DNA of 64,000 nucleotides from Sulfurospirillaceae bacterium (GTDB lineage: Bacteria; Campylobacterota; Campylobacteria; Campylobacterales; Sulfurospirillaceae): the NCBI GenBank assembly GCA_033723415.1, contig JAWVXD010000009.1:1-64000 (forward strand). Direction: 5' to 3'. The position numbers were made by a program. Of this stretch, positions 1-3,000 are shown in pieces (position 1 is the first letter of the stretch; each line of letters opens with the position of its first letter).

Positions 1-3000
1 GTTTAAAAAAGATTAATTTCACATTTAATAAACAATCCTATAATTCTTTTACCAAGACGCAACCCTCCTTTTTATAGAACGAATATATTTTTTGAAAGAG
101 CGTCCGAGTTGCCCACCTCGGACGCAATTTCCCTTCTTTTTTAATTTTCAAGTAATATTTTAAAATTTCTAATACTAAAGAAAAGATGACACTGCCATTC
201 GACTTAATTTTTGTATAGTTTATAGAGTGTAAATCTCACAAATAAGATAAAACTTCTCCTATTTACTATTTATTTAACAAAAATTAATTTCGCATTTAAC
301 AAACAATCCTATAATTCTTTTACCAAGACGCAACCCTCCTTTTTATAGAACGAATATTTTTTTTGAAAGAGCGTCCGAGTTGCCCACCTCGGACGCAATT
401 TCGCCCTCTTTTTAGTTTATTTTTCTTATGGTATAATCCGCAAATGAAATTATTAATCTTTTTAACCGTATTTTTACTAAATCTTTTTGCTTCAACCCTG
501 CATCTATCAATAAGTGCAAATCCAAGTAGGATAAATCCAATACTTTCGACTGATAGTGCCAGTAGTGAAATCACTCAATTTTTGTTTAATTCTCTAATAA
601 AGTATGACAAATTTGGAAAGATCAAATGTTCATTGGCAACAAGTTACGAGTTTAAAGATAAAACAACACTTATCTTTCATCTGAGACATGGAGTCAAGTG
701 GAGTGACGGTGCCCCTTTTACTGCAAAAGATGTCGTATTTACTTATAAGACTATAATCTCTCCTAAGATTTTTACTCCTTATTCTTCAAGTTTTACACAC
801 ATAAAAAGTGTCGAAGCGCTTGATGATTATACCGTGAAAGTTACGTACAAATATCCCTATTTTAATGCTTTAGAGACTTGGATGATGGAAATATTGCCAA
901 GGCATATTTTGAAAAATGATAAAAACCTCATGACAAGCAAGTTTAACCAAGCTCCTATAGGAACAGGACCATATACTCTAAAAAAGTTTTCTATCTCAAG
1001 CGATATAGAACTAGAAGCAAACCCTAACTATTTTATACATAAACCCTATATAGACAAGATCATCTTTCATTATCTGCCTGACAGCTCGGCAAATTTTTTG
1101 ATGTTAAAATCAGGATTATTGGATGTCGGTTCTTTGTCACCTTTGCAGTTAAAAAGGCAGATAGATAGTGATTTTAAGAAAAAATTTAATATCTACGAAT
1201 CTCCTGCTCACTCTTATGAGTACTTGGGATTTAATCTAAAAAATAAGAAATTTGCAAATCCTCTTGTCAGAAAAGCGCTATCTTTGGCAATAGATAGAGA
1301 AGAACTTGTTAAAATTTTATATTTTGGACACGGTAAAGTCTGTACAGGACCTTTTATGCCAGGAACCGGAGCATTTAATAAAAATGTCAAGGCTCCAAAA
1401 CAAGATATTAAAAAGGCAAAAGAGCTGTTAAAACAAGCAGGCTATGACAGCGCTCATCCTCTCACGTTTGAGATCACGACAAGCACAGGATCGGTACGAT
1501 CTTATATCGCTCAAATCTTACAGCACCAACTAAAAAAATCAGGTGTGATAGTAAAGCTTAGGATCATGGAGTGGCAAGCCTTTTTAAATACAGTAGTCTT
1601 GCCTAAAAAATTCGAAGCAGTGCTGCTTGGCTGGTCAGTTGGATTAAAGCCTGATGCCTATAGTATTTGGGATAGTGAGTCTTATAAAAAAGGCGGTTTT
1701 AATTTTGTAGGATATAAGAATATTGAGGTAGACAAGCTTATCAAAAAAGCTGAACGTACGATTGATACTGCGAAATTCGATGCTATATATCGTAAGATCT
1801 TCAAGCTTATAGTCAATGACAATCCTTATCTTTTTTTAGTTATACCAAACTCTATTACCGTTGTGAGCAAAAAGATCTCTCCGGTATCTCCTTCTATCAT
1901 AGGGGTGATGCATAATCTAATAGATTGGAAAAAAGAAAACTAACAAACATTACACAAAATATCAATATAATAGTCATAATATTTTTTACAACAGGAGTAT
2001 ATGATGTATATTTTGAAAAAACCCAGTTGGTATATAAGTGAAAATGAAGTCACCCCTGAGGAGTTATTTGAAAAGAGAAGACATTTTTTAAAACTTGGGA
2101 TCGCCAGTACGGTTTCACTTTCTGTGATAGTAGAAAAACTGGCAGCGATTGAGAGTGAGCATAGGATGCCTTTAAAATTCAAAAAAACAGATTTTGGTAA
2201 AGGTTTGGAACTCAACTCCTTTCATCAAGCGAGTACATACAATAACTTTTATGAGTTTTCTCTAGACAAAGACAAGCCGGCAAAGATGGCACAGACGTTA
2301 AAACCAAGTCCTTGGAATGTGAAAATTTCAGGAGAAGTCGAGAATCCTATGGATATAAGCTTAGAAGAGATCTATTCATCTTATCCGCTTGAAGAGAGGA
2401 TATACAGATTTCGCTGTGTCGAGGGCTGGTCTATGGTCTTGCCATGGATTGGTTTTCCGCTTTCTTACATACTAAAAAAAGCGAAACCTACCTCAAAAGC
2501 TAAGTTTGTCAAGTTCACGACACTTTTTGATCCCAAACAGTTTCCAGATCAAGCAAGTAGTATCTTTGGCGGTAACATCCCTTATCCTTATGTCGAAGGA
2601 CTGAGAATAGATGAAGCTATGAATGATCTCACTCTGTTAAGCGTTGGTATGTATGGTAAAGCATTGCCAAATCAAAACGGCGCTCCGATCAGACTTGTAG
2701 TGCCTTGGAAGTATGGATTTAAAAGTATTAAGTCCATCGTCAGCATTGAATTAGTGGAGGAAGAACCTTTGAATACTTGGAAAAAAGTAAATTCTAACGA
2801 ATACGGCTTTTATGCAAACGTCAATCCTCATGTTGATCATCCAAGATGGTCACAGGCGAGGGAGCGAAAACTCGGTAGTTTTTGGAAGCAAAAGACACTT
2901 ATGTTCAACGGCTACGAAAAAGAGGTGGCATCCATGTATAAAGGTATGGATTTGAGAAAATATAAATGAAAAAAAAGTTCATAATTTCGATATTTCTTTT

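Follow-up and report, generated by a model that had tools for sequence, protein, structure and literature searches.

What is the direct repeat (146 nt, 92% identical, offset 271 nt) that opens the window, that is, the whole 64,000-nt stretch from the start of contig C9 of the Sulfurospirillaceae genome G000, and what could it do in the cell? A survey of the genome had read it as a multicopy, trans-acting small RNA (sRNA) with an anti-Shine-Dalgarno (anti-SD) seed. The analyses below uphold that reading: the element occurs in several copies, stands alone, is non-coding and carries an anti-SD stretch. In addition, conserved tandem boxes in the promoter appear to tie the RNA to the htrA-cprRS regulon; this point was absent from the survey, as were a second predicted sRNA of that regulon and a look-alike outside the family. 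The features concerned, all on the forward strand, are as follows.

1-5, 12-16 and 23-27 (span 1..27), +: promoter boxes 2 to 4 of the first copy; box 1 falls on contig C17, past the end of this one
39..44, +: TATAAT, the -10 box of the first copy, separated by 11 nt from box 4 and by 6 nt from the predicted start
51..141, +: predicted sRNA, first copy (covariance model, fold, stem covariation)
54-58 and 64-73, +: AAGAC and anti-SD CCUCCUUUUU in the 5' part of the first copy, then an AU-rich linker
100-108/117-125, +: terminator stem of the first copy, with loop 109-116, then a U-rich tail
261-266, 272-276, 283-287 and 294-298, +: four promoter boxes of the second copy, 11-bp period, predicted CprR-type sites
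310..315, +: -10 box TATAAT of the second copy
322..412, +: predicted sRNA, second copy (the anchor copy before oppA)
335-344, 371-379/388-396 and 380-387, +: anti-SD, terminator stem and loop of the second copy
432..437, +: the downstream gene's own -10 box, 6 nt before ATG, a leaderless arrangement
444..1943, +: oppA-like solute-binding protein gene (family 5), outside the RNA; conserved 3' neighbour of one copy family-wide

Architecture of the predicted RNA

Using a covariance model built from an alignment of 54 copies, we recovered the two units in the window at 51-141 (98 bits) and 322-412 (94 bits), with no further match above E 0.07 in the 64 kb. Five BLAST matches in G000 represent three copies, because positions 1-130 of its contig C4 equal the start of C17, and the end of C17 equals the start of C9. 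The copies lie across the C4/C17 join (beside the rplM-rpsI region), across the C17/C9 join (position 51 of the window) and at position 322; a DUF234-type gene stands between the first and the second, and the oppA-like gene follows the third. They are 92 to 100% identical to each other, and the repeat broke the assembly. The survey's count of three copies, two of them in the window, was thus borne out by repeat comparison, BLAST and the covariance model. For the closed genome G011, three copies were likewise confirmed, but not at the same spacing, as had been stated (239 and 1091, versus 271 and 1088 in G000).

Each unit runs from a -10 box through 6 nt, ACCAAGAC, five variable bases, CCUCCUUUUU and an AU-rich linker to a stem-loop (9-bp stem, 8-nt loop) and a U-rich tail. 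The predicted RNA measures about 70 to 95 nt, and the cassette of boxes, -10 box, RNA and terminator about 160 bp. TATAAT or TATACT 6 to 7 nt before the start, previously ascribed to all copies, was present in 54 of 58, and one copy (G007, locus L045) has no promoter. Fold z-scores of the two window copies were -3.95 and -3.36. Covariation in the terminator, which had already been claimed, was evident as two-sided changes in all nine pairs among 54 aligned copies, in which terminator cells were paired at 96.7%, compared to 29 to 45% with slid partners. The UGCCC loop is conserved (116/121 copies), near-invariant rather than strictly invariant as first described, and the U-run after the hairpin is interrupted in G000, G011 and G014.

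The seed had been described as unpaired. This holds for its CCUCC core (unpaired mean of 0.90 in the genus group of G000 and 0.97 elsewhere; 112 copies), but not for the flanking AAGA and U-run, which are partly paired outside that genus, where AAGAC is unpaired at 0.61. AAGA can pair with the U-run, and in 8 of 54 rows G is replaced by A with the pair retained. Such a weak stem would present the anti-SD in a loop, as shown for the anti-ribosome-binding-site (RBS) seeds of CJnc190 and RepG (PMC8687705, excerpt); since no two-sided change was found in it, we offer this as a suggestion only, and the same AAGA invariance could reflect pairing with U in a target instead. Copies differ in the distance from AAGAC to the anti-SD (1 to 6 nt). 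As reported before, no Rfam family covers the RNA: in Rfam 15, the best score for window positions 1-460 was 23.8 bits (E 0.11), and eight further copies, among 10 loci submitted, gave no match on the RNA.

Distribution and genomic neighbours

In the Sulfurospirillaceae, which are free-living and related to Campylobacter, the covariance model matched 60 of the 61 genomes, in all six genera and with one to eight matches each; the single genome without a match is a 490-contig assembly. While the earlier figure for the genus itself (12 of 13 genomes) was reproduced, the weaker presence described for three other genera has to give way to this family-wide distribution. Among the carriers with a name are Sulfurospirillum cavolei NBRC 109482 and S. 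sp. SCADC, and partial matches were found on three Sulfurospirillum plasmids. A promoter-plus-seed pattern occurred in 18/18 family genomes and in 1/382 others. Outside the family, the covariance model matched 3 of 141 genomes (E 0.035 to 0.048), one of the three matches, that in genus g23, looking real, and viral contigs gave no match to the strict pattern. About 22 non-family loci from a pattern scan of the whole collection were rejected, being without hairpin or model score; 18 non-member loci were removed by hand before the later counts, including those of the promoter boxes.

A look-alike exists in genus g23 of family f3, apparently the Campylobacteraceae, judged from protein features. 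There, 50 of 56 genomes, many of them close kin, match a relaxed pattern, 46 with one conserved form: a single-copy unit of about 60 nt before moaC, with nearly the same seed and a terminator whose loop differs from, and is unrelated to, the UGCCC loop of the family. Of the 21 examined, 19 have the proximal promoter box, at 11 to 12 nt from the -10 box on its upstream side. The look-alike scores 17 to 37 bits with the covariance model, and its Rfam score of 35 bits for SorX is below the cut-off of 46.6. Pattern matches in genus g17 (20/51 genomes; 16 loci examined) turned out to be coding, antisense RBSs or ambiguous (L611), none being clearly a member, and no family-like element was found in the 51 genomes of this genus, which presumably holds C. 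jejuni.

The neighbourhood bears on whether the element acts as a free RNA at all. A cis element (a 5' leader or attenuator of oppA) or an inert, small mobile repeat, without free-RNA function, would fit the copy that lies directly before oppA across the family, as well as the near-identity of the G000 copies. However, oppA stays downstream of just one copy per genome, the anchor; the nearest proteins around 110 copies fall into 88 clusters in all four orientations, and the other copies face convergent gene ends or unrelated genes. Because a separate -10 box precedes the ATG of oppA by 6 nt, a spacing from which the gene would be transcribed leaderless, the RNA does not appear to be the leader of the downstream gene. 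Moreover, no terminal inverted repeats were seen around the window repeat, and boxes and stem are conserved while spacers drift. We regard this explanation as barely conceivable.

A type I antitoxin, or the orphaned remnant of one, silencing a small toxin in cis or at a distance, was also considered. The opposite strand carries AAGGAGG with UUG 8 nt later in most copies, the element is multicopy and also found on plasmids, and there is the NikS/IsoB precedent, such an origin having been proposed for H. pylori NikS (PMC8322730 and PMC8687705, excerpts). Likewise, the AapA/IsoA systems of Helicobacter and Campylobacter involve multicopy RNAs of about 80 nt that are complementary to an SD region, but membership there needs a conserved 30-codon open reading frame (ORF), carried opposite the RNA (PMC5416894, excerpt). 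The present family has no conserved one, in agreement with the survey: 68 of 119 copies give five codons and 13 no start, and antisense frames of at least 18 codons occur in 11 of the 119, with unrelated sequences. A 19-codon antisense frame of G000 looked conserved between the two window copies and collapsed in relatives. An antisense -10-like hexamer was found in 36 of 58 copies when counted anywhere on the strand of this AT-rich DNA. Since a conserved ORF of about 30 aa with an SD is absent from the opposite strand, the RNA is not an AapA/IsoA member. Furthermore, the 110 copies share no toxin-like neighbour, and retention in 60/61 genomes together with a regulator-type promoter is unlike a toxin-antitoxin module. 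An antitoxin function is therefore very improbable, while an RNA that is now regulatory could still have arisen from a type I toxin-antitoxin pair.

Promoter boxes shared with htrA

When the promoters were aligned, four RTTWA boxes, repeated every 11 bp, emerged ahead of the -10 box. The proximal and at least two upstream boxes were present in 107 of 114 distinct family promoters and, after thinning to <65% identity, in 17 of 21, compared to 2 of 400 ordinary promoters and 0 of 19 tRNA/tmRNA promoters of G000; like those for htrA below, these counts overstate independence, because the family promoters and htrA loci are kin. With a strict test, the proximal box was found in 112/114 family promoters but the second box in only 52/114, which counts against the promoter reading. 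RTTTA stands at the box-4 position in 3.5% of the 400 G000 promoters. A periodic upstream signal has been described for C. jejuni promoters (PMC3847290, excerpt), and we asked whether it could be the sole cause of the boxes; that was rejected, the signal being weak in G000 promoters and absent from tRNA/tmRNA promoters. Since control promoters rarely match, the boxes are not simply the general C. jejuni-type signal.

When a three-box pattern was run across 36 family genomes, it marked, besides the RNA copies, promoters of htrA (four genomes), a MoxR ATPase (three genera), a PpiC/PEB4-like chaperone, HflK-like and YccA-like proteins, and several unrelated genes. Two proximal boxes in the same register were present in 30 of 30 scorable htrA promoters of the family (32 of 56 loci examined, 27 of the 32 from one genus), compared to 6/26 htrA promoters of other families and 11/1070 control promoters of G000. 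Among the 11 control matches are periplasmic folding genes (PpiC/PEB4, DsbD, a DsbC-like thioredoxin and CcsBA) and a DUF255 gene, along with fumC, queH, terB, pfpI, DUF1294 and one unscanned gene; about half of the 11 are non-envelope genes. Against the tie to htrA, no htrA match was found in G000 and G011.

In the family, the genes behind htrA encode an OmpR-family regulator and an ArsS-family kinase, and cbpA-hspR runs divergently from htrA, presumably the order also seen in C. jejuni (htrA-cprR-cprS, divergent cbpA-hspR). By synteny and protein families, this is the predicted cprRS locus. The CprR orthologue of G000 (C1:421229-421912) is the best match of 15 of 19 htrA-linked regulators from other families, with which it has the recognition helix in common; as a point against, its own promoter is without boxes. 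The box is the reverse complement of GTAAAC, which we take to be the CprR consensus, and peb4 is presumably a CprR target. CprR of C. jejuni switches on htrA as well as its own promoter (bioRxiv 10.64898/2026.10.05.755907, excerpt) and has been tied to the cell envelope (PMC9449129 and PMC7887314, excerpts). The available parts of PMC4456614, PMC12428200, PMC7318608, PMC6222199 and PMC7089426 give no CprR consensus. The predicted regulon would comprise htrA, peb4, dsbD, dsbC-like, ccsBA, moxR, yccA and hflK. Provided that the RNA is transcribed, its promoter is, from these sequence comparisons, likely to be activated by CprR.

The same boxes could be read differently, with anti-SD sibling sRNAs under a different OmpR-family member (a RacR-like paralogue) or simply under a strong form of the periodic sigma-70 promoter of Campylobacterota, and with no special tie to envelope stress. 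The periodic signal of C. jejuni promoters would suit such a driver; G000 holds four related regulators, three close paralogues (g1520, g1323 and g1902) could read similar boxes, and the box matrix also scores a heavy-metal-type regulator locus (C11:25729), livJ and a SCO gene. The C11 regulator was in fact the first suspected controller and was dropped, as it concerned one locus only. Weighing against another driver are the weakness of the periodic signal in the 400 G000 promoters, its absence from tRNA/tmRNA promoters and, above all, the boxes before the htrA-cprRS operon itself (30/30), so that we consider it unlikely.

Candidate targets, a putative partner RNA and known systems

Taken with the promoter boxes, the anti-SD stretch leads us to favour, as the probable reading, that the copies are sibling, trans-acting, Hfq-independent sRNAs which block RBSs as the non-coding arm of a CprRS-type envelope-stress regulon. 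Under envelope stress, the phosphorylated CprR orthologue would occupy the tandem boxes and activate the RNA copies together with htrA, peb4, dsbD and a porin-directed second sRNA. Each copy would yield a terminated RNA of about 85 nt, extra copies would raise the dose, and the exposed CCUCCUUUUU would pair with G-rich RBSs without Hfq and block translation. Both transcription and repression through RBS pairing are what we infer here. Hfq was not found in five of five genomes tested. Given that the promoter switch is common with envelope repair genes, the RNA probably helps to shut down protein synthesis under envelope stress.

Which mRNAs would be affected was approached through pairing. In G000, GGAGG is an uncommon site that occurs more often than expected ahead of genes for predicted envelope proteins (46/82 versus 630/1705, p 7e-4, with crude gene calls and envelope classifier and in G000 alone), while AAGGAG is not enriched before such proteins in this genome. 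Among the 50 best-pairing leaders, 60% belong to envelope proteins, compared to 38% in the background and 49% with shuffled 5' blocks (1/60 shuffles as high). Strong pairing sites were no more frequent for the real seed than for shuffled 5' blocks, genome-wide duplex ranking in G000 gave no outlier target, and complement patterns in five-genome sets stayed at control level or hit scattered genes only. ccoO recurred among the candidates in five of six genomes and was rejected, as 11 family leaders (-20.4) and 27 leaders of other families (-19.8) pair equally. For ccoN, the 14 family leaders reached -20.1 and 21 others -15.6 with the best of six seeds, and values with each genome's own seed ranged from -12.7 to -23.1 (rank 115/2290 in G000); picked after the fact, and with family leaders that are kin, ccoN is a weak candidate target. 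Porins were discarded as targets of the anti-SD RNA, owing to poor pairing (-7 to -11). Quite possibly, the targets are envelope-bound proteins such as respiratory complexes, an assignment we would not press.

That no specific target emerges from the pairing screens would also suit an RNA that binds a protein or the ribosome, with UGCCC and AAGAC as protein contacts and the anti-SD mimicking the 16S rRNA 3' end, thereby titrating SD-led mRNAs. The loop is kept in 116/121 copies although a terminator needs no fixed loop, and the spacer between AAGAC and the anti-SD is free to vary from 1 to 6 nt. The f3 look-alike, however, keeps the seed with unrelated loops, and comparable C/U-rich anti-RBS seeds pair with mRNA in CJnc190 and RepG (PMC8687705, excerpt), which makes protein or ribosome binding quite improbable as the main function. 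A search of the G000 assembly for the 3' end of the 16S rRNA found nothing.

A second unit with the same promoter adjoins ssrA (G000, C5, about 192663-192580, minus strand). This partner RNA was matched in 45 of 61 genomes, weak antisense matches included, and has no Rfam match. Its 5' end pairs with the starts of OprD-type porin genes 5 to 10 kb away, at -23 to -30 kcal/mol for 11 genes of relatives (some of these scores used the RNA of a different genome) and at -18 to -19 kcal/mol in G000, where other mRNAs rank as high. A porin-directed partner under the same boxes fits an envelope-stress regulon. More tentatively, the two may form a two-RNA envelope-stress arm under CprRS in Hfq-less Campylobacterota, in which the ssrA-adjacent RNA would silence porins and the anti-SD RNA, dose-tuned by its one to eight copies, would broadly brake mRNAs with a strong GGAGG, a class rich in proteins for export and respiration, the cbb3 oxidase among them; such an arm would be ancient, since a genus of Campylobacteraceae type still has it, and an antitoxin may have been its source.

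CiaR of Streptococcus also controls htrA, and its csRNAs carry an anti-SD stretch; MicA, RybB and OmrA/B form a non-coding arm of the envelope-stress response. Similar in size to the present RNA, csRNA1-5 are likewise related copies with a response-regulator box in strong promoters (CiaRH), and LhrC1-5/Rli22 of Listeria monocytogenes are likewise multicopy, under an envelope-stress two-component system (LisRK), and pair with RBSs of surface-protein mRNAs (PMC7602753, excerpt). The present RNA would work like both and appears homologous to neither: LhrC gave no sequence or Rfam match, the host here is Gram-negative and no Hfq was found in it, while for the csRNAs there is no Rfam match, and box, phylum and structure (here one strong hairpin) differ. 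CpxQ of enterobacteria is also a non-coding arm of an envelope-stress response (PMC7602753, excerpt). CpxQ, MicA, RybB and OmrA/B need Hfq, and CpxQ is 3'-UTR-derived, whereas the present RNA is stand-alone, multicopy and under a predicted CprR/ArsR-type regulator; the partner beside ssrA, pairing with porin starts, resembles MicA and RybB. Within the same phylum, CJnc190 of C. jejuni and RepG and NikS of H. pylori are likewise Hfq-independent, with C/U-rich seeds over G-rich RBSs, and differ, by their descriptions in the excerpts available rather than by sequence comparison, in being single-copy and under other regulators (NikR for NikS), with CJnc190 processed by RNase III.

We conclude that this is a new, previously uncatalogued family of predicted sRNAs. 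Among titles and abstract beginnings, no description of it or of any Sulfurospirillum sRNA was found, and the available part of PMC6682613 does not mention small RNAs. In 12 of the 22 supplementary files of PMC3847290, CCTCCTTT does not occur; a link to catalogued C. jejuni RNAs is possible. C. jejuni sRNAs are reported to be barely conserved beyond the species (PMC3847290, excerpt), the CprRS regulon is little known (PMC9449129, excerpt), and RpoE, Hfq and ProQ are absent from C. jejuni (bioRxiv 10.64898/2026.10.05.755907 and PMC8687705, excerpts). A family-wide sRNA with a predicted regulator, a porin-directed partner and a mapped regulon would offer a direct test of how envelope load is controlled without RpoE, Hfq and ProQ. 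As far as those titles and abstract beginnings show, Sulfurospirillum, which serves in studies of dechlorination, would also gain its first sRNA candidates with the two RNAs.

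Boxed promoters and the missing htrA

Beyond the multicopy RNA, RTTWA boxes like those of the htrA-cprR-cprS promoters, predicted to bind a CprR-type regulator, were recorded at the following sites of the genome under study.

C1:121392, C1:210132, C4:138079, C5:179705, C3:59401, C2:376729 and C11:55312, boxed promoters of predicted regulon members
C11:25680-25735 (locus L261), top match of the four-box matrix outside the RNA

The genes predicted to belong to this regulon encode a PpiC/PEB4-like protein, DsbD, a DsbC-like protein, CcsBA, MoxR and a DUF255 protein; for the yccA-like promoter, a box score was obtained only in a relative (L352). 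A CXXCH outer-membrane-like gene lies on one side of the top matrix match and a heavy-metal-type two-component pair on the other. In the genome under study, htrA is missing from the interval that separates cbpA from the orthologue of cprR (C1:421018-421229; L359:2519-2730), and no match to it was found in the closed genome G011; it is present in 56 of the 61 Sulfurospirillaceae genomes.

A second predicted small RNA beside ssrA

C5 about 192580-192703, minus strand (L360), predicted sRNA adjoining ssrA
L313, L323, L433-L462 and L480, further loci of this predicted sRNA

This uncatalogued element has the same boxed promoter as the multicopy RNA and is duplicated in tandem in three genomes (G016, G037 and G038). 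Close by lie OprD-type porin genes, whose start is complementary to its 5' end. The element may correspond to the 80-nt one named in the initial note.

Neighborhoods of the RNA copies

Downstream of oppA (window 1943-7597) lies msrP, accompanied by what we take to be msrQ, the two genes of a two-component pair, doxX, genes of the DUF2063/DUF692 type and one for a small Cys-rich exported protein; together these look like an oxidative/HOCl stress cluster. In all genomes compared (L478, L475-L477 and L513-L517), ccoNO is located 10 to 20 kb from the anchor copy before oppA, and at these loci the family's ccoN leaders share an invariant stretch that reaches from the SD to the start codon. One RNA copy, at L045:2090 (G007), has unrelated sequence in place of the -10 box and boxes.

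Candidates in a neighboring family

L563-L586, L242 and L613, look-alike of the multicopy RNA in genus g23 of family f3

The g23 look-alike, upstream of moaC, is single-copy and shorter than the multicopy RNA. Its seed is nearly the same, and its promoter has the proximal box; no target was found for it. In genus g17 of the same family, L611 (G549) combines a -10 box, an anti-SD stretch and a terminator without boxes, possibly an unrelated sRNA. Also in g17, L616 and L620 contain hydrophobic ORFs of 22 to 24 codons with a strong SD and, within the ORF on the opposite strand, a -10 box. At L616 the ORFs are arranged in tandem. Both loci are candidates for type I toxin-antitoxin pairs and have no relation to the multicopy RNA.
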